From a virus, in IMG/VR virus record IMGVR_UViG_3300017760_000001, positions 1-64,000 of that record: DNA of 64,000 nucleotides, one strand, 5' to 3'. A program made the translations under genes and the position numbers. Positions 18,503 to 40,710 of this stretch are shown here, in pieces (position 1 is the first letter of the stretch; each line of letters opens with the position of its first letter). The notes under the pieces are model-generated. The model had not been told where the DNA came from and searched no databases. It worked only from the letters and a program-made list of their open reading frames with translations.

Positions 18503-19471
18503 TTAGGCAGCAGTCGCAAATTCCACTGCCTTGTCAACCGCCTTGATCTTACGGTTTTGGTTTGCACCGTACCATGCAGATGTCATACGTGAATCCGCTT
18601 CACGACCCATCACATGATCGGTTAGGTAGGTTACACTGTTCAGTGCCTGCCACCAAGTACCACGTCCAAACTCTGCTCCTGGCTGAGTCTCTAACAACTC
18701 AAATGCCTTTTGACCGTTGGTGGTCAGATCAGAAACATCTTTCACTACAGGTGGGTTCTTACCCTCGTAGGTACGTGGGAATACTTCGTTGTAGTATTGG
18801 ATTAGGTTATCCATAGAGAACTGACGTGAAGACAAGAACTGAGACATCTCTTTGAACTGATCGAACTTCTCGTGTGCCAGACCCATAGTAGTCTTTACAT
18901 GTTCCGCATCGAATACACGGCGGTGGTTCATCTTAACACCATTGACCGCACGACCTTTCAGTGCCATTGTCAAAGTGTTCATACATGATACACGGATTGG
19001 AGTGAATCGAATGTCCACTGACTTACCGTACTCGTGTGGGTTAGAGAACAACAGGTAAGAATCAACCTGATCGCCTTTCAGTACATCGAAAGAGTCGTTG
19101 ATCTTAGCAAGCGCCCATACCATCTTACCACCCTTCAGTGATCCAGCAGTATGCATTTCCATACCACCTTCTAGACAGTACTCATTAAAGAACTCAAACG
19201 CAGTATCGTTTTGTACAGGTTCCCACTTCCCACCGACTTGGGTGAGTACTTTACTATCCGAAGAACGAACGAGTGCTTCCATTCCAGTAGGAACTCTTTC
19301 TCCCTTATAGTCAGCATAGGTCGGAACTTTATCGACAGACCAGTTTAGACCAGCCTTGTCCATCATTTGTTGTGGTGATAGGTCATTGGAAACCTGTGTC
19401 CCGATTTCCCCCCAAGGAGAACGTCCAGCGTATGCCATCGTCTCGATTTGTAACACGTCATTTAAACTCAT
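18503..19471 (-). CDS. DUF932 family (phage/plasmid TIGR03299-like) protein
   Basis: MAYAG..PW, AGLNWSV, PVQN, TAGSLKGG, RVSCMNTL, GTWWQALNSVT. Confidence 0.8.
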   Translation of the reverse strand: MSLNDVLQIETMAYAGRSPWGEIGTQVSNDLSPQQMMDKAGLNWSVDKVPTYADYKGERVPTGMEALVRSSDSKVLTQVGGKWEPVQNDTAFEFFNEYCLEGGMEMHTAGSLKGGKMVWALAKINDSFDVLKGDQVDSYLLFSNPHEYGKSVDIRFTPIRVSCMNTLTMALKGRAVNGVKMNHRRVFDAEHVKTTMGLAHEKFDQFKEMSQFLSSRQFSMDNLIQYYNEVFPRTYEGKNPPVVKDVSDLTTNGQKAFELLETQPGAEFGRGTWWQALNSVTYLTDHVMGREADSRMTSAWYGANQNRKIKAVDKAVEFATAA

Positions 19472-19501
19472 TTCATATTCCTCTCATTAATTTACAGAGT
19501 A

Positions 19502-19531
19502 ATTATAACATATTCAAAACAAGTTTGTCAA
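19502..19531 (-). promoter_or_regulatory. sigma70-type early promoter
   Basis: AAAACGC-TTGACA-18-TATAAT. Confidence 0.8.
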
Positions 19532-19545
19532 GCGTTTTCTTAAAA

Positions 19546-21366
19546 TTATTTCAAGAAAGTGTAGATCTCAATGAGTTCTTCTTTACCTTTGACTTTGATG
19601 TCACCGATCTTCTTAGATTCGATGTCGGTAAGTTGTTCCATTGTAAAACCAGAGTAGATGGTTTTGTATTCCTTATAATCTCCTCTTGCGGCAGTTGCTT
19701 CGAGTCTAGCGGCAAGGTTTACAGCATCGCCGATAACAGAATAATCGAACCTTGATTCGCTTCCCATATTACCCACAATGCAATCACCTGTATTGATGCC
19801 AGTGCCGATGTTAATATCGGGCAATCCTCTTTCTTTATATACTTCTTTAAGTTCATTTGTTTTAGCCTCTATTTCTCTTGCTGATTTAACTGCCATGTCG
19901 GCATGATTAGGACAATCCAATGGTGCATTCCAAAACGCCATCACACAATCTCCCATGTACTTGTCGATCGTGCCACCGTTGTTTAGAATAATCTTGGTCA
20001 TGGCATCTAGGAACTCGTTGATCAACTCAACCAGTCCCTCTGGATCATCGTTGTTTTTATAGTGTTCTGAGATCGGAGTGAAACCACAGATATCCATAAA
20101 TAGAAACGTCATTTCCTTGCGCTCACCACCGAGTTTCAGAAGTGATGGATCTTTCTGTAACATGTACACCATGTCGGGAGATAAATAAGTACCGAACTGC
20201 TTTTTAACTTGCTCTTTCAACTTGTATGTGGTATAATACTGGTTAAAAGACGATTGCCCAAATACAAGGAACCCTGCAATTGAAACCCAGACGATATCGA
20301 AAACAAAGTAATAACTACTCCAAACGTACCACGAAATTGTCGGGACGATTGAAAGAAAGAAAAGCGAACTTATCACCCCAAGAACTGTGGGAAACCTATA
20401 GACCGATACAAGGATTCCTAGACACACTACCAGAATCGAAAGCACTTCAACTATTAGACTCCAGTCGGGTCTCTGTATTTGAACACCTGAAAGGACGGTC
20501 TGAATTTGATGACCTTGAACTTCGTGGGGATACACTGCACCCATTGGGGTTGGTACTGGATTAGCAACTCCCTCAGCTGTCACACCAAGAATCGCTATCT
20601 TACCTTCGGGTATAGGGTCTAGTATACTTTGAGATTTAAAGTCGTGCCAGAACGCAACAGGCAACTCTGACGAGGGTTCTGTGACCAATGGATCCTGTTT
20701 ACCCAGTCTTATCCACTCTACACCAAGAGAATTGTATTTAACGGTGTAAGAAGGTTCGCCTATCCACACCCTAACGGCGTCTAACCCAAGAGAGGGATAA
20801 GGTTGTCCATTGATTCCTACCATCAGTGGCGTTCGTCTGAGAACACCTGTAGGTTGATCAACTTCTGCGGATACCGCACCCACCCCCATTGACATCCTTG
20901 CCAATTCGGGAATGGGTGTGAGTAGTCCTGTGTAATCTATTAATGAGTCAACTGGTTTACCAAACGTAGAAACGTTGGCATATATTCCTAAATCAACTGT
21001 AGTAGTTTGGCGTGTAGGGGCGCTTGACAGGATTACTGCTTTTTGTCCTATCGAGTTTGATAGTTCCTGATCCCCCACAAACCGATCTGGTTCCGACCAG
21101 ATCATTGTTGATACAAGTAGAGTATTGTTTGGTGCTTGGTTTATATAATTTGCGACTGTCTTTCTCGGCCAAGGGTATTGTCCCTCCTGTTCTATGGCAC
21201 GTTCATCAATGTTTACCAGTACAATGTCATCCACCGAGACCATCTCGTGACTTTGTTGTAACTGATCGTAGTATGCATATTGAAACGTCTTGACGATATC
21301 AATCTGCGATATTTTTAAAACTGTGAACAGAACGATCACAGGAATGACACTATACCACTTTGTCAT
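19546..21366 (-). CDS. CHASE2-domain class III adenylate cyclase
   Basis: N-terminal TM, IVLVNIDE..GQYPWPR (CHASE2), three TMs, FMDICGFT, DKYMGD, RFDYSVIGDAVNLAARLE. Confidence 0.92.
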   Translation of the reverse strand: MTKWYSVIPVIVLFTVLKISQIDIVKTFQYAYYDQLQQSHEMVSVDDIVLVNIDERAIEQEGQYPWPRKTVANYINQAPNNTLLVSTMIWSEPDRFVGDQELSNSIGQKAVILSSAPTRQTTTVDLGIYANVSTFGKPVDSLIDYTGLLTPIPELARMSMGVGAVSAEVDQPTGVLRRTPLMVGINGQPYPSLGLDAVRVWIGEPSYTVKYNSLGVEWIRLGKQDPLVTEPSSELPVAFWHDFKSQSILDPIPEGKIAILGVTAEGVANPVPTPMGAVYPHEVQGHQIQTVLSGVQIQRPDWSLIVEVLSILVVCLGILVSVYRFPTVLGVISSLFFLSIVPTISWYVWSSYYFVFDIVWVSIAGFLVFGQSSFNQYYTTYKLKEQVKKQFGTYLSPDMVYMLQKDPSLLKLGGERKEMTFLFMDICGFTPISEHYKNNDDPEGLVELINEFLDAMTKIILNNGGTIDKYMGDCVMAFWNAPLDCPNHADMAVKSAREIEAKTNELKEVYKERGLPDINIGTGINTGDCIVGNMGSESRFDYSVIGDAVNLAARLEATAARGDYKEYKTIYSGFTMEQLTDIESKKIGDIKVKGKEELIEIYTFLK

Positions 21367-22049
21367 TGTTGTGTTATTATAACAGAACACCCACCTACAG
21401 TCAAGCAGTTTTGCTGTAAAGTATAGGACGCTGTTGAATTAAATTGTTTAAGTGTCAAGTCAGTGCCATATGTGCCGTCAAGTTCTATGGTCGCTGTGTG
21501 GTTTGCCCCACTACCTTTCTGACGAATGAACACATCGTTCTCGTCATTGTAGATCGTAAGGTCTATGGACTTAGCACCATCGTGCTGTTGAATGGTCGTA
21601 ACTTCGTTATCGTCTCCAGTTAAATTTAGTTCGTAACTGTGACCGTTATTCCCTGCGTTTCCCTGATTAGTCTGTTGAGCAGAAATACCGTTTCTATTTC
21701 CAGTAACTGTTAGATCGATTGAGTGACCACCATATTCCCAGTTGTCATATGTGTAGTCGTGATTAGTATAACTTTCTGGATAATCAAAGGCGCACCCTTG
21801 ACATAGTTTGATACCATTGTCATCGCCTGTAGTATTGACTGTCACAGTATTATCTACCGAACTGTCATTATACTGGAGAATGAGTAGTTGTTGGTTCGTT
21901 CCATCAGCGTTGACTGTTGCGCTATTGTTAGCACCTATTTGATCAGTACCAATCGCAAAGTTGTTACCTGACTGATCGATAAAGATTTCGTTGTCTGCAT
22001 ATGATAGGGAACATATGAAACAAATTACAAATAATAGTTTCTTCATCAT
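21363..22049 (-). CDS. secreted curlin-like repeat protein (CsgA/B-like)
   Basis: Signal peptide; repeated Q-x-G-x-x-N / TG-x-x-N units; N/Q/G/T-rich. Confidence 0.65.
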   Translation of the reverse strand: MMKKLLFVICFICSLSYADNEIFIDQSGNNFAIGTDQIGANNSATVNADGTNQQLLILQYNDSSVDNTVTVNTTGDDNGIKLCQGCAFDYPESYTNHDYTYDNWEYGGHSIDLTVTGNRNGISAQQTNQGNAGNNGHSYELNLTGDDNEVTTIQQHDGAKSIDLTIYNDENDVFIRQKGSGANHTATIELDGTYGTDLTLKQFNSTASYTLQQNCLTVGGCSVIITQQ

Positions 22050-23191
22050 TCTCTCTGTTTTATCGATACTATCTTATCTTCTCCACCGTCTGCTGTGATG
22101 GTTCCTCGATAACCTTCTACTTCAGTATCTAGTCTTATACTACCGCCGTCTACGAACTTTAGTTCGATTACTCCCTCGACATTTCTGTAGAAGACAATTC
22201 CATCATCTTCCTCAAATATTCTGTATTGACTGTCCTCGTTGATTCCCCAGACAGCCCCAGTCAGTCTTACCTGACCTTTCTGACCTTCTTCCTGTACATC
22301 CTCCAGTTTCTCCATAGTTCGGATCAACTCTTCGACTACGTCTTGTAAGTCCGTAAGAAACTCACCACTCAACGCATCATAGTCTAGTCTGGTGTATTGA
22401 TCTCCACCAGCGTAGTCGTCAAAACTCTTTTCTAGTTCGTCAAACTCTAGAAAGTCTTTGTCCAATGCACCCATGTCAATATTCTGATCATCTTGCATTT
22501 GTTCTTCTATTGCCATCTTCACCTCTTTAGGTGGATTGACAATAAACATATTATCGATTACGGATGGTGTAATGTTATCTATTATAACTTTAACTGTCGG
22601 GGGTGTCGATACACTTGATACCATTGTGGCAGAATATGCCTCTGCGAGTGTTATCGATCCCGCCTCATTTGATACAACAATCTCTCCTGACGGATCACCA
22701 TTCTCGTCTGGTAACAGAATAACTAATGTTCTACCTAGTTCGTCAATGGTCGTTGTGAAGTCCGTACCACGCACGGCAATCTGTGCGGTCGGAGTCGATA
22801 TATCAATGTTCTTCTTATCAACCATACCAAGTCTACCAGAAGCAAACCGAGCAGTTCCAAGTGCCATCTTCATGACCATCTTGGACTTGCTTGGATTCGG
22901 ATCGTAGTATACCTTATCGATATAGACTTTGGTATGTTCTATCAAGGATAGTTCTGCATCATCAAGGAACTTGATTAACATTCTACCCTTGGCAGTCTGA
23001 GCAGTATCGTTGAGTTGAATGACCTCACCGACATCTGCCTTTACGACATCCCTTGTCTCTCTTAGCAATGAACCGACTCCTGTCGATTCAACCACCCCAC
23101 CGATAGATTCTGCGTTAACCGAACCTATCGATAGAATAGTACTAACTATCGTTAGCAGTATCTTTCTGACTAATCTGAATTGTAGCATCAT
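22046..23191 (-). CDS. FecR-domain periplasmic protein
   Basis: Signal-like N-terminus, IKFLDDAELSL, ISTPTAQIAVRGTDF; exact start uncertain. Confidence 0.85.
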   Translation of the reverse strand: MMLQFRLVRKILLTIVSTILSIGSVNAESIGGVVESTGVGSLLRETRDVVKADVGEVIQLNDTAQTAKGRMLIKFLDDAELSLIEHTKVYIDKVYYDPNPSKSKMVMKMALGTARFASGRLGMVDKKNIDISTPTAQIAVRGTDFTTTIDELGRTLVILLPDENGDPSGEIVVSNEAGSITLAEAYSATMVSSVSTPPTVKVIIDNITPSVIDNMFIVNPPKEVKMAIEEQMQDDQNIDMGALDKDFLEFDELEKSFDDYAGGDQYTRLDYDALSGEFLTDLQDVVEELIRTMEKLEDVQEEGQKGQVRLTGAVWGINEDSQYRIFEEDDGIVFYRNVEGVIELKFVDGGSIRLDTEVEGYRGTITADGGEDKIVSIKQRE

Positions 23192-23867
23192 CAGATGTAA
23201 CGTCCAGTGTTATGATACCCTTACAGGACGAAACTCCCACTGGGCATGTACCACTAATCTGATTGATATCCACGTCTGCGTTATCACCAGTTAAGTCCAT
23301 AGTAAGCGTCTGATAGAAACCATCGTTCTGTAAAGTGTTGATATCGTTACCGTCACCTGTTACATCTACAGTGAAAGTTACGTCATCAGTCTCTACGTCT
23401 GCATCGAATACGTTGTTACTACCAATTACTGTTAGATCTAAGTCCAAACGTTCTGCACTAGAAACATAACCTTGATCGAAGTCCATTGTATTCGAATCAC
23501 CAGTAACACTCACGTCAAGAGTTGAACTGTCGGCAGAACCTACGTAACCGATATTCCAATCCCATGAGTTTGTGTCGCCAGTCCAAGACATGTTGTAAGT
23601 CGAACTATCTGATACAACTGTACCAAACAACAAGTTCGAGTTACCAACTTGGTCTATGTCGAAAGTCAACGATGAACCAGTAATGACACTTGCAGAAGAT
23701 GAAGTCGAGAAATCGTCTCCACCCACCTTGTTACCATAACCTATCTGGTCAATATGTAAACTGAAAGTATCACCAGATTGTTCAATGTTGATTTCGTTAT
23801 CGTCAGAAGCCGCACCATATACAAAACTAGAAAATAGTAACGCTAGTCCTAATAAGTACTTATTCAT
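23142..23867 (-). CDS. secreted curlin-like repeat protein (CsgA/B-like)
   Basis: Signal peptide; IDQIGYGN, IDQVGNSN, VTGDSN, VIGSNN, VTGDGN repeats. Confidence 0.7.
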   Translation of the reverse strand: MNKYLLGLALLFSSFVYGAASDDNEINIEQSGDTFSLHIDQIGYGNKVGGDDFSTSSSASVITGSSLTFDIDQVGNSNLLFGTVVSDSSTYNMSWTGDTNSWDWNIGYVGSADSSTLDVSVTGDSNTMDFDQGYVSSAERLDLDLTVIGSNNVFDADVETDDVTFTVDVTGDGNDINTLQNDGFYQTLTMDLTGDNADVDINQISGTCPVGVSSCKGIITLDVTSDDATIQISQKDTANDS

Positions 23868-24717
23868 TTTCTTCTTCTTCTCCTATGAGGTGACCATCGT
23901 TAGTCCCATCGCTTTGATGAGGGTGTCGATGTCCTTCCCCTACTTTCCAAAGTCCCCTGTCATGACCTTGGTATATTAGTTCAAGCACTCCCGCCTCAAT
24001 TGACGTTCGTACTGCGTATGTCACTGACTCGTTGTTACCAACACCGTCTTCATACTCTACTAGTTGGGTTCCTTGTTCGGTAAATCTAAACACGTCACCC
24101 CCTGTTCCGTAACTAAGAATTGTCTTCTTAGCTTGGACGTTCAACAGTATCTCTCCTGACAAAACTGAAACTGCCCTGATAGAAACTGTCACAACATCTT
24201 TACGGTATTTCCGAGAAAATCCTATTCCCAGTGTTCTCGCACCCTGACCTCCTGTCTCTATATTGGTATCATAACCAATTATACCACCTTCGATAATCAT
24301 CCCAGCAAATAATAACGGGCCTACTCCCTGAGATTCTTCGTCAGCGTATTCTTTTCGGGTACTGCGAATAATCTGTCTTTCTCTGACTAGATGTTCGATA
24401 CCCTGTCTCTCAACCACACGGAACCATGTTCCTCCGCCTGCGGTCTTGAGTGCATCTATTAACATTTCAGTACTACCTTGCGTTACCGCCGTACTGAAGT
24501 CTGCAATACCATCACGTGCCTTACGTTGTCCAGTCAGATCCTTGAATCCATAAACTGCGACAACAGGCATCTGGGTTGCGGGCGGTACATTCAACAACTC
24601 TTGATATGCCGGCAACCTTACCACTTCTGGTTCTGTTATATCGGTTGACCACTCTGGATGAGTCGCACAACCACCAAGAAACAGAATCGGTAGTATCTTA
24701 AATAGGAGGCGCATCAT
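23860..24717 (-). CDS. csgG: curli secretion channel lipoprotein
   Basis: Lipobox LGGC; VAVYGFKDLTGQRK, FSTAVTQG, WFRVVER, ERQIIRS, EGGIIGYD. Confidence 0.93.
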   Translation of the reverse strand: MMRLLFKILPILFLGGCATHPEWSTDITEPEVVRLPAYQELLNVPPATQMPVVAVYGFKDLTGQRKARDGIADFSTAVTQGSTEMLIDALKTAGGGTWFRVVERQGIEHLVRERQIIRSTRKEYADEESQGVGPLLFAGMIIEGGIIGYDTNIETGGQGARTLGIGFSRKYRKDVVTVSIRAVSVLSGEILLNVQAKKTILSYGTGGDVFRFTEQGTQLVEYEDGVGNNESVTYAVRTSIEAGVLELIYQGHDRGLWKVGEGHRHPHQSDGTNDGHLIGEEEENE

Positions 24718-25195
24718 CGTCCCCACTGTCTATTGAACCAAAGTTACCTGTACCAATCGGTATCTCAATGATAGTTTCTGTGCCTTCGGTATCCGTGATT
24801 CGCATCTGAATATATTCTTCGTTGTTATCGTTCGTCATTACCTGATACGATACGACCGAACCTTCGAGTGTAAATGACCCGAATGTTACTGCATCTTCGT
24901 TACTAAACATATTGTCAACCAACTGTTTAGATAACTGGGCATATATTCTACTCTCTAGGTTTCTAATAAACTTAGCGAGTGTAGTGTTCTCCGCTTCTCG
25001 TTCTGCGGCCTTCTGTGCCGCCTCTAACGCATCTTCGATCGCTTTCTTTCTACTTGATTCTTGGTTTTCGATCGTTAGGTAATGTGACCCAGTACCCACT
25101 CCACTAAAGGATGGGTTCTTAAAACCGAAAGTTATTTCACTACTCAGACTCGTTAGCGGTGCTACCATCAGTAGCATCATTATTGTCTTTCTCAT
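24698..25195 (-). CDS. csgF: curli assembly protein
   Basis: Signal peptide then FKNPSFSG; LESRIYAQLS; directly upstream of csgG. Confidence 0.8.
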   Translation of the reverse strand: MRKTIMMLLMVAPLTSLSSEITFGFKNPSFSGVGTGSHYLTIENQESSRKKAIEDALEAAQKAAEREAENTTLAKFIRNLESRIYAQLSKQLVDNMFSNEDAVTFGSFTLEGSVVSYQVMTNDNNEEYIQMRITDTEGTETIIEIPIGTGNFGSIDSGDDDAPPI

Positions 25196-25436
25196 TCATC
25201 ATTTCCTGTTGTTGTAGTATCATATCTAATTTAGTTTTCAAACGAATCAGATCGTTGTCTAACATTCTCACTCTATCAATGAGTGCGATAAGAGTCATAT
25301 GAGACTCTTCGATTACAGGATCTACTTCTTCTGTAACCCACTTCCAAACGTAGTAGATAAAGTAACCCAACCCCATACTTGCAACAATGGGGAAACCGTA
25401 GGTGTTAATTAAGTCTACTACACTCAATTCTTCCAT
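25140..25436 (-). CDS. small single-TM coiled-coil membrane protein
   Basis: YGFPIVASMGLGYFIYYVW; RVRMLDNDLIRL. Confidence 0.7.
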   Translation of the reverse strand: MEELSVVDLINTYGFPIVASMGLGYFIYYVWKWVTEEVDPVIEESHMTLIALIDRVRMLDNDLIRLKTKLDMILQQQEMMNEKDNNDATDGSTANESE

Positions 25437-25714
25437 TAGTCTTTACGTGAATCCTTCTGACCATCTGATCTAGCAATTCTATCCAGATCTGGTTTTATGT
25501 TGAAGGCGTGAGAGACCAATAGATCAATTCTAACCAATTCGTTGTTCATCGTCTTGACACGATTGTCAAGTGCTTTGACGAAACCACGTTGTGTCTTGAT
25601 GTTACTCAAAACGCCATCTAGTATGAATCGAAGTGTAAGGAATACGAAGAATCCCCCAGCGAGTGCCGAGGCGATGGGAAAACCCACATCCATGATACCT
25701 AAAAATGCGTCCAT
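25436..25714 (-). CDS. small single-TM coiled-coil membrane protein (paralog of neighbour)
   Basis: VGFPIASALAGGFFVFL; RVKTMNNELVRI. Confidence 0.7.
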   Translation of the reverse strand: MDAFLGIMDVGFPIASALAGGFFVFLTLRFILDGVLSNIKTQRGFVKALDNRVKTMNNELVRIDLLVSHAFNIKPDLDRIARSDGQKDSRKD

Positions 25715-25746
25715 ATTAAAACCTTCAAATCAATTCGTTATGAAGG

Positions 25747-25754
25747 TATTTATA
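25747..25754 (-). promoter_or_regulatory. T4 late promoter heading the curli/cyclase operon
   Basis: TATAAATA about 32 nt upstream of ATG 25714. Confidence 0.75.
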
Positions 25755-40222: not shown

Positions 40223-40639
40223 TTAACTGATAGAAATTTTACGAGGACGCTTCTCTTCTGGTAACACTACCTTTAAATTAATTACAAGAATACCGTTATT
40301 GTAAGAAGCTCCGTCTACTTCGACATATTCACTTAAGCGGAAAGTCCGTCTAAACTTCTTGGTAGAGATACCCTTATGAAGATATTCACCTTCTTCGGAT
40401 TGCTTACTCTCACCTCTGACGTTTAACGATCTTTCTTTCTGCTCTATATCCAGATCGGATTCCTCGAATCCAGCAAGTGCCAGTTCGATCGAGTACTCTG
40501 TGTCGGATCTCTTAACAATGTTGTGAGGTGGATAATTATCCTTGGCATGCCTCGCTACAAAGTCAAGTTCATCTAGAAGATGGTCAAATCCTACAAAGGA
40601 CGCTCGTGGAAATAGTTGTGATGCTTTTAAGTTAGTCAT
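40223..40639 (-). CDS. hsp20: small heat-shock protein (Hsp20/IbpA-like)
   Basis: FVGFD, NYPPHNI, IELALAGF, YLHKGIS, NGILVI. Confidence 0.93.
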   Translation of the reverse strand: MTNLKASQLFPRASFVGFDHLLDELDFVARHAKDNYPPHNIVKRSDTEYSIELALAGFEESDLDIEQKERSLNVRGESKQSEEGEYLHKGISTKKFRRTFRLSEYVEVDGASYNNGILVINLKVVLPEEKRPRKISIS

Positions 40640-40700
40640 ATTTTTTCTCCTTTGAAAAAGCAAGATTAAAACGGATACCGAACCATTTCGCATATCCGCC
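40640..40700 (-). promoter_or_regulatory. ROSE-like RNA thermometer in the hsp20 5' UTR
   Basis: 5' hairpin GCGGATA..TATCCGT, then UCUUGCUUU-UUC-AAAGGAGA pairing over the SD with a bulged G. Confidence 0.6.
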
Positions 40701-40702
40701 GT

Positions 40703-40710
40703 TATTTATA
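40703..40710 (-). promoter_or_regulatory. T4 late promoter for hsp20
   Basis: TATAAATA. Confidence 0.75.

Follow-up and report, generated by a model that had tools for sequence, protein, structure and literature searches.

The window analysed here covers the first 64 kb of the IMG/VR record IMGVR_UViG_3300017760_000001, a virus sequence of 144,435 bp that has direct terminal repeats. From position 25714 down to 19546, eight minus-strand open reading frames (ORFs) overlap or abut one another and form a cassette that encodes two small membrane paralogs (mp1 and mp2), the curli secretion proteins CsgF and CsgG, two curlin-like proteins (A and B) on either side of a FecR-domain protein, and an adenylate cyclase with a CHASE2 domain. 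The genes overlap by 1 to 56 nucleotides (nt) at their junctions, several of which are of the ATGA or TAATG type. A megablast search of isolate phages with the cassette nucleotides found no match, and relatives came from protein-level searches; in PHROGs, phage families of unknown function take every product except the two curlin-like proteins. Each of the eight products is marked for export or for a membrane, by a Sec signal peptide, a lipobox or membrane helices. We think it somewhat probable that the region is a viral type VIII secretion (curli) cassette with a FecR-cyclase envelope sensor, which is the best explanation of the sequence features described below. A preliminary description of the same DNA had listed these eight ORFs together with GFPI motifs in the membrane proteins, a CsgG lipobox and a late promoter at 25747, had seen no csgE, and had spread the products over both membranes, the periplasm and the cytoplasm. 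Our analysis agrees on each of these points: the ORFs lie on the minus strand at the places it gave, both motifs are present in the translations, the promoter box and the lack of a CsgE match are recovered, and the predicted locations cover the same four compartments.

CsgG (23860..24726, minus strand; Pfam PF03783, 1.8e-50) is a homolog of the outer-membrane lipoprotein pore, with the lipobox LFLGGC and 41-48% identity to alphaproteobacterial CsgG. CsgF (24698..25195, minus; PF10614, 3e-17) has a signal peptide and a mature N-terminus, TFGFKNPSF, that parallels TFQFRNPNF of Escherichia coli; BLASTP against E. coli CsgF aligned both the signal peptide and the TF.F.N motif. A search of the full 144-kb record for the CsgE family (PF10627) came back empty, although it did detect the E. 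coli control. The curlin-like proteins A (23142..23867, minus; 241 amino acids) and B (21363..22049, minus; 228 amino acids) are paralogs (hhalign probability 99%, E 3e-18), each with a signal peptide followed by the common tag (A/S)DDNEI.I.Q.G and with a C-terminal Cys pair. Orthologs of both match the curlin repeat family Curlin_rpt (PF07012): 24/26 for A (best 1.9e-5) and 29 of 34 for B (best 3.4e-9). The AlphaFold2 (AF2) model of A (predicted local distance difference test [pLDDT] 75, predicted template modelling score [pTM] 0.71) is all-beta with paired strands, a predicted beta-solenoid. A VIA structure search with this model placed Pontibacter CsgA (8c50_A, Z 15.3) fifth, behind SufD-type beta-helices. 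Foldseek found no match for it at E<=0.001, and profile searches of both paralogs against PDB sequences gave no meaningful match.

The gene between the two curlin-like ORFs (22046..23191, minus) encodes a FecR-domain protein of 381 amino acids (PF04773, 1.4e-7; phrog_37870, 8e-61). Its only hydrophobic stretch is a signal-peptide-like segment at residues 7-25, followed by VNA/ES, and the Pfam match is confined to residues 64-151. The AF2 model (pLDDT 65) has a FecR/PupR-type beta domain (residues ~30-200) that is connected by an acidic helical linker to a small beta domain at the C-terminus. In Foldseek, the model matched the C-terminal cell-surface signalling domain of PupR (6ovk_R; E 1.5e-4, probability 1.0), and its N-terminal beta domain also matched the periplasmic domain of a Parabacteroides anti-sigma factor (probability 1.0). 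An N-terminal cytoplasmic anti-sigma domain was not found, and Pfam gives the FecR domain alone; nor did a TonB-dependent partner come to light, although no search was directed at one. The name "FecR transducer" in the preliminary description is thus a misnomer: with a signal peptide and a predicted periplasmic fold, the product is, on its model, a secreted FecR-fold protein and not a FecR-type transducer.

The last gene of the cassette encodes the CHASE2 / class IIIb adenylate cyclase (19546..21390, minus). Its probable start is the in-frame ATG at 21366, which makes an ATGA junction with curlin B. CHASE2 (PF05226, 4.3e-28) covers residues 22-325 and the catalytic domain (PF00211, Guanylate_cyc, 6.5e-18) residues 425-607. 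Hydrophobic segments at 12-30, 312-330 and 360-378 bracket CHASE2, and the second block (~312-378) comprises two scored segments; the protein is therefore predicted to start with a single membrane helix, to expose CHASE2 in the periplasm and, after the second block, to end in a cytoplasmic cyclase domain. The best solved relative of the catalytic domain is Pseudomonas aeruginosa CyaB (3r5g, 1.4e-31), followed by cyanobacterial adenylate cyclases. When 19 phage orthologs (42-90% identity) are aligned, D433, K477, D481 and R562 never vary, and S551 and N558 are each kept by at least 90% of the sequences. These residues align to CyaB 3r5g and CyaC 1wc0, with S551 opposite a Thr of the class IIIb enzymes. 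We take the six to be the metal, substrate and transition-state positions of class III cyclases. On that reading, all of the catalytic residues are present and the phage cyclase is predicted to be catalytically competent and ATP-specific. The CHASE2 cyclase of the preliminary description is therefore borne out.

At the other end of the cassette, mp1 (25436..25714, minus; 92 amino acids; phrog_18771, 1e-26) has one N-terminal membrane helix (hydrophobic segment at residues 7-25), the GFPI motif and a helical C-terminal part, and it matches no Pfam family even at E<=5. Its paralog mp2 (25140..25436, minus; 98 amino acids) belongs to the same family (phrog_18771, 7e-32), which among isolate phages occurs only in HTVC008M and Melnitz, and weakly matches the holin family phrog_4898 (2.7e-4). 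A His within the mp2 motif ee.Hm.LI.lID..RMLDqD.IRL is near-invariant (75/77 orthologs) and is missing from mp1. Proteins at this position have been published as "HK" (histidine kinase); ten orthologs, 77-107 amino acids long, had no HisKA or HATPase_c match at E<=5. The label is not supported for mp1 and mp2, and the mp2 His alone is suggestive.

A late promoter-like box, TATAAATA, lies at 25747..25754 on the minus strand, 32 nt upstream of the mp1 ATG. The window holds 10 copies of this box, all on the minus (coding) strand, vs 3.7 expected. Since further copies stand 9-67 nt before ORFs that include tail sheath, tail tube and hsp20, the box behaves as a T4-type late promoter, and a single late promoter is likely common to all eight cassette genes. 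The hsp20 copy (40703-40710, minus) is 9 nt before the first ATG of an Hsp20-family ORF (40223-40693, minus), a small heat-shock protein (phrog_432, 6e-36) for which a later Met may be the true start.

Pelagibacter phage HTVC008M (gp011-gp019) and Methylophilales phage Melnitz (gp97-104) carry these eight genes in identical order. To survey it more widely, IMG/VR was scanned for CsgG relatives, which occur on 314 contigs, and the best 80 loci were analysed; because these are the closest relatives, the sample is biased. Counted against the loci with enough sequence to hold the gene, every cassette gene is present in every case and the order is unchanged (mp1, 68/68; mp2, 75/75; csgF, 75/75; curlin A, 69/69; FecR, 55/55; curlin B, 51/51; cyclase, 36/36), with protein identities down to 26-60%. 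The FecR and cyclase genes, whose linkage to csgF and csgG was essential to the circuit proposed in the preliminary description, are thus co-conserved with them in the sampled loci. Some of the loci have unrelated genes between curlin B and the cyclase. In L069 (3624-6312) these encode a uroporphyrinogen decarboxylase (URO-D), a family-2 glycosyltransferase and a calcineurin-like phosphoesterase, the last of which overlaps the cyclase start and could be a cyclic-nucleotide phosphodiesterase; in L060 (11570-12440) the insert encodes NifU.

The preliminary description had mentioned reports of csgG and csgF in some marine T4-like phages. The full module, including FecR and cyclase, has been published: Wittmers et al. 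(2022) report "HK," CsgF, CsgG, CsgA/B, FecR, a second CsgA/B and an adenylate cyclase (AC) in pelagiphage podoviruses and myoviruses (PMC9599517). They describe FecR and AC as lying outside bacterial curli operons, infer an alphaproteobacterial origin with transfer between virus families, and report that the module is expressed in ocean metatranscriptomes and that none of the 65 ocean virome stations examined lacked the cassette; the CHASE2 domain is not mentioned (PMC9599517). Two other studies, Zaragoza-Solas et al. 2020 (PMC7029224) and Buchholz et al. 2022 (PMC9004378), describe csgF and csgG and leave FecR and the cyclase unmentioned. The block is therefore already known from SAR11 and OM43 phages, and the window contributes one more divergent copy, carried by a marine phage of the T4-like, pelagiphage-like kind.

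Hidden Markov models of the eight phage proteins were used to screen 10 kb around bacterial cyclase loci. The 80 loci are those of the cyclase's closest bacterial relatives (29-37% identity) and come mostly from marine Alphaproteobacteria, with some from SAR86, Elusimicrobiota and Omnitrophota. A FecR homolog lies within this distance, often adjacent, in 30/80 of these loci. None of them has csgG, csgF, mp1 or mp2 nearby, and the sole curlin match is on a suspected phage fragment. Two short contigs assigned to metagenome-assembled genomes (MAGs) of Rhizobiaceae (L084) and Saprospiraceae (L085) carry a phage-type cyclase with 47% and 39% identity, respectively, and one of them also has curlin B; both are probably phage fragments mis-binned as bacterial. 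Conversely, CsgG of 41-48% identity occurs in 7 of 401 alphaproteobacterial genomes, at loci that hold csgF and sometimes curlin-like genes, and no FecR homolog or cyclase was found within 10 kb of these seven csgF-csgG loci. In bacteria, FecR is thus associated with the cyclase rather than with curli, since it is near 30/80 cyclases and 0/7 csgF-csgG loci. Altogether, the curli and FecR-cyclase modules are separate in the bacteria sampled and their join is seen only in phages; none was found in 80 cyclase-centred and nine csgG-centred bacterial loci, and absence is not proven beyond these. The cassette genes probably came from Alphaproteobacteria.

Pairs of a FecR-domain gene and a CHASE2 gene have been described in several bacteria. 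The two are adjacent in the Burkholderia "BiofilmReg" operon and in P. aeruginosa PA4035/PA4036 (PMC5192318), and the FecR-domain gene SMc02177 lies beside CyaD1 in Sinorhizobium meliloti (PMC5498481), where the outer-membrane protein NsrA is required for signal perception by the CHASE2 cyclases CyaD1/D2 (PMC7529298), a precedent for relaying outer-membrane signals to such enzymes. FecR and the cyclase of the phage resemble an off-the-shelf bacterial CHASE2 sensor of this kind rather than an iron regulator. In four of the marine alphaproteobacterial genomes (L100, L092, L111 and L142; G+C 31-33%, 1.1-2.0 Mb), ORFs for cyclic nucleotide monophosphate (cNMP)-binding proteins lie on both sides of the CHASE2 cyclase homolog, with an upstream frame of ~575 amino acids and one or two downstream frames of ~150 amino acids (at ~8246-13040 in L100). 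A FecR-domain open frame of ~840-1030 amino acids lies some 6 kb from the cyclase, and the region looks like a conserved signalling island for cyclic AMP (cAMP). With cNMP-binding ORFs on each side of their cyclase, cells of these low-G+C Alphaproteobacteria can read cAMP.

Taken as a viral curli cassette with an envelope sensor, the eight genes might work as follows. Late in infection, the CsgG lipoprotein and CsgF would assemble an outer-membrane channel, through which the tagged curlin-repeat paralogs would leave the cell and build up a surface layer or beta-solenoid fibres resembling curli. The two parts of a periplasmic sensor, of a type that is common in bacteria, would be the secreted FecR-fold protein and the CHASE2 cyclase, and this sensor would convert the state of the envelope into cytoplasmic cAMP. 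Its input might be curlin that has accumulated unsecreted, the degree to which the ungated pore is occupied, or molecules that come in through the pore. The cAMP would be read by host proteins, and mp1 and mp2 may be cassette-specific inner-membrane parts.

Several observations weigh against this account. The late timing is read from the promoter motif only. The phage genome encodes no cNMP-binding domain, so any cAMP would need host readers. Some related phages have unrelated genes between curlin B and the cyclase; podovirus versions of the module always carry FecR and "frequently" the cyclase, which is often absent where FecR is kept (PMC9599517), so the coupling of FecR and cyclase to curli is not obligatory. 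Cells infected by Melnitz showed no clumping (Buchholz et al. 2022; PMC9004378). As for the fibre subunits, the window's own copies fall below Pfam significance (no match for A, E 0.041 for B), comparisons with E. coli CsgA by hhalign are weak and not significant (probability 5.5% and 28%), and the fold of A matches CsgA no better than it matches other beta-helices. The preliminary claim of two curlin-like proteins therefore stands for the families and not for these copies by themselves: "curlin-like" is a reasonable label for A and B at family level because most orthologs match Curlin_rpt though the window's copies miss it, and for these two sequences it is not proven.

Alternatively, the FecR-fold protein could serve the channel itself, as a periplasmic adaptor or gate replacing CsgE, while the cyclase separately resets cAMP-regulated metabolism of the host. 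The lack of CsgE in the phage genome and the place of the FecR gene between two curlin genes, overlapping both, fit this arrangement, as do the podovirus modules that always have FecR and only "frequently" the cyclase (PMC9599517) and the inserted genes that separate curlin B from the cyclase in L069 and L060. However, FecR neighbours bacterial CHASE2 cyclases in 30/80 of the closest loci and is found within 10 kb of none of the seven alphaproteobacterial csgF-csgG loci, and the two genes occur together in all 36 myovirus-type loci with room for both. We consider a FecR gate unlikely. It is distinctly unlikely, in our estimation, that CsgG-CsgF is an ungated pore instead of a fibre exporter, acting as a pinholin- or secretin-like lysis timer (Buchholz et al. 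2022) or in cofactor import (Wittmers et al. 2022), with the cyclase and mp1/mp2 as regulators. Such a pore would account for the missing CsgE gate, the weak holin-family match of mp2 (phrog_4898, 2.7e-4), the late-type promoter and the lack of clumping in Melnitz infections (PMC9004378), but two signal-peptide curlin-repeat paralogs are kept in every related locus, and conservation extends to the N-terminal segment with which CsgF enters the CsgG barrel; moreover, an outer-membrane pore alone leaves the inner membrane polarised.

The preliminary description went further than the sensor proposed here and read the operon as a complete surface-sensing circuit. That reading is plausible, while its chain from an amyloid antenna through FecR and CHASE2 to cAMP is pure conjecture. 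In its strongest form, the parts would be welded into one trans-envelope device, in which the pore or fibres report an outside event through FecR to the cyclase and cAMP, with cNMP-binding proteins of the host as its readers, sets lysis timing or host state; we regard this as quite improbable. The outside event could be, for example, a superinfecting phage, debris of lysed neighbours or contact with particles, and the device, if real, would be a lysis-inhibition-like sensory system made from borrowed envelope parts. The preliminary description had also raised the prospect that the products are virion parts unrelated to the host envelope. The HTVC008M cassette does adjoin tail tape measure and baseplate genes, and the cassette here is behind a late promoter. 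Yet all of the products are homologous to bacterial envelope proteins and the flanking genes differ between phages. Because each product bears one of the export or membrane signals listed above, a role in the virion or its assembly is rejected as extremely improbable, and we regard the products as exported envelope proteins. The curli cassette with a FecR-cyclase sensor thus remains the explanation that we prefer.

On its downstream side, the cassette is taken to end at the cyclase because the promoter of the next gene follows the cyclase stop directly. This promoter (19502..19531, minus) is of the sigma-70 type, with a perfect TTGACA-18-TATAAT and a TG element, and heads a gene for a 322-amino-acid protein of the function-unassigned family phrog_1221 (18503-19471, minus). 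A strong terminator-like hairpin (18497-18478) closes this gene. An early-type unit (18503-19531, minus) is therefore located immediately behind the late cassette.

Among the hosts of such phages are some of the ocean's most abundant bacteria. If the cassette makes fibres, adhesion among infected plankton cells would change; if the cyclase is a true envelope sensor, this would be an uncommon instance in which a lytic phage brings its own second-messenger sensing. Our analysis refines the published picture of the module in three respects: FecR and the cyclase resemble a bacterial CHASE2-type sensor pair, their join to curli is phage-only in our sample, and the "histidine kinase" label is unsupported.

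Among known systems, the closest are the HTVC008M and Melnitz regions (PMC9599517; Zaragoza-Solas et al. 2020, PMC7029224; PMC9004378), which share the genes and their order with the cassette described here, likewise lack CsgE, and have their closest cellular relatives in Alphaproteobacteria. They differ in protein sequence (31-49% identity to HTVC008M and 27-59% to Melnitz), in G+C content (41% in this phage vs 34-37%) and in flanking genes. With the classical csgBAC-csgDEFG system of Enterobacteriaceae and the alphaproteobacterial loci, the phage shares the CsgG lipoprotein pore, the TF.F.NP.F segment of CsgF and secreted proteins whose families match curlin-type repeats. In contrast to classical curli, the phage has no detected CsgE and its FecR and cyclase genes are interleaved in the cassette; compared with E. 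coli CsgA, its curlin paralogs are longer (228-241 amino acids), have a C-terminal Cys pair and match weakly. The FecR-cyclase part of the cassette resembles the bacterial FecR-CHASE2 pairs, although these are unlinked to csgG, csgF and curlin genes, and some cyclase loci of low-G+C marine Alphaproteobacteria have flanking cNMP-binding genes whereas the phage has none. The Burkholderia partner differs in having a LysM domain and a histidine-kinase output. Still, the bacterial pairs share with the phage a secreted FecR-domain protein encoded beside a sensor that runs from a transmembrane segment through CHASE2 and further transmembrane segments to a cytoplasmic output, and in the S. meliloti pair that output is a class III adenylate cyclase, as in the phage.

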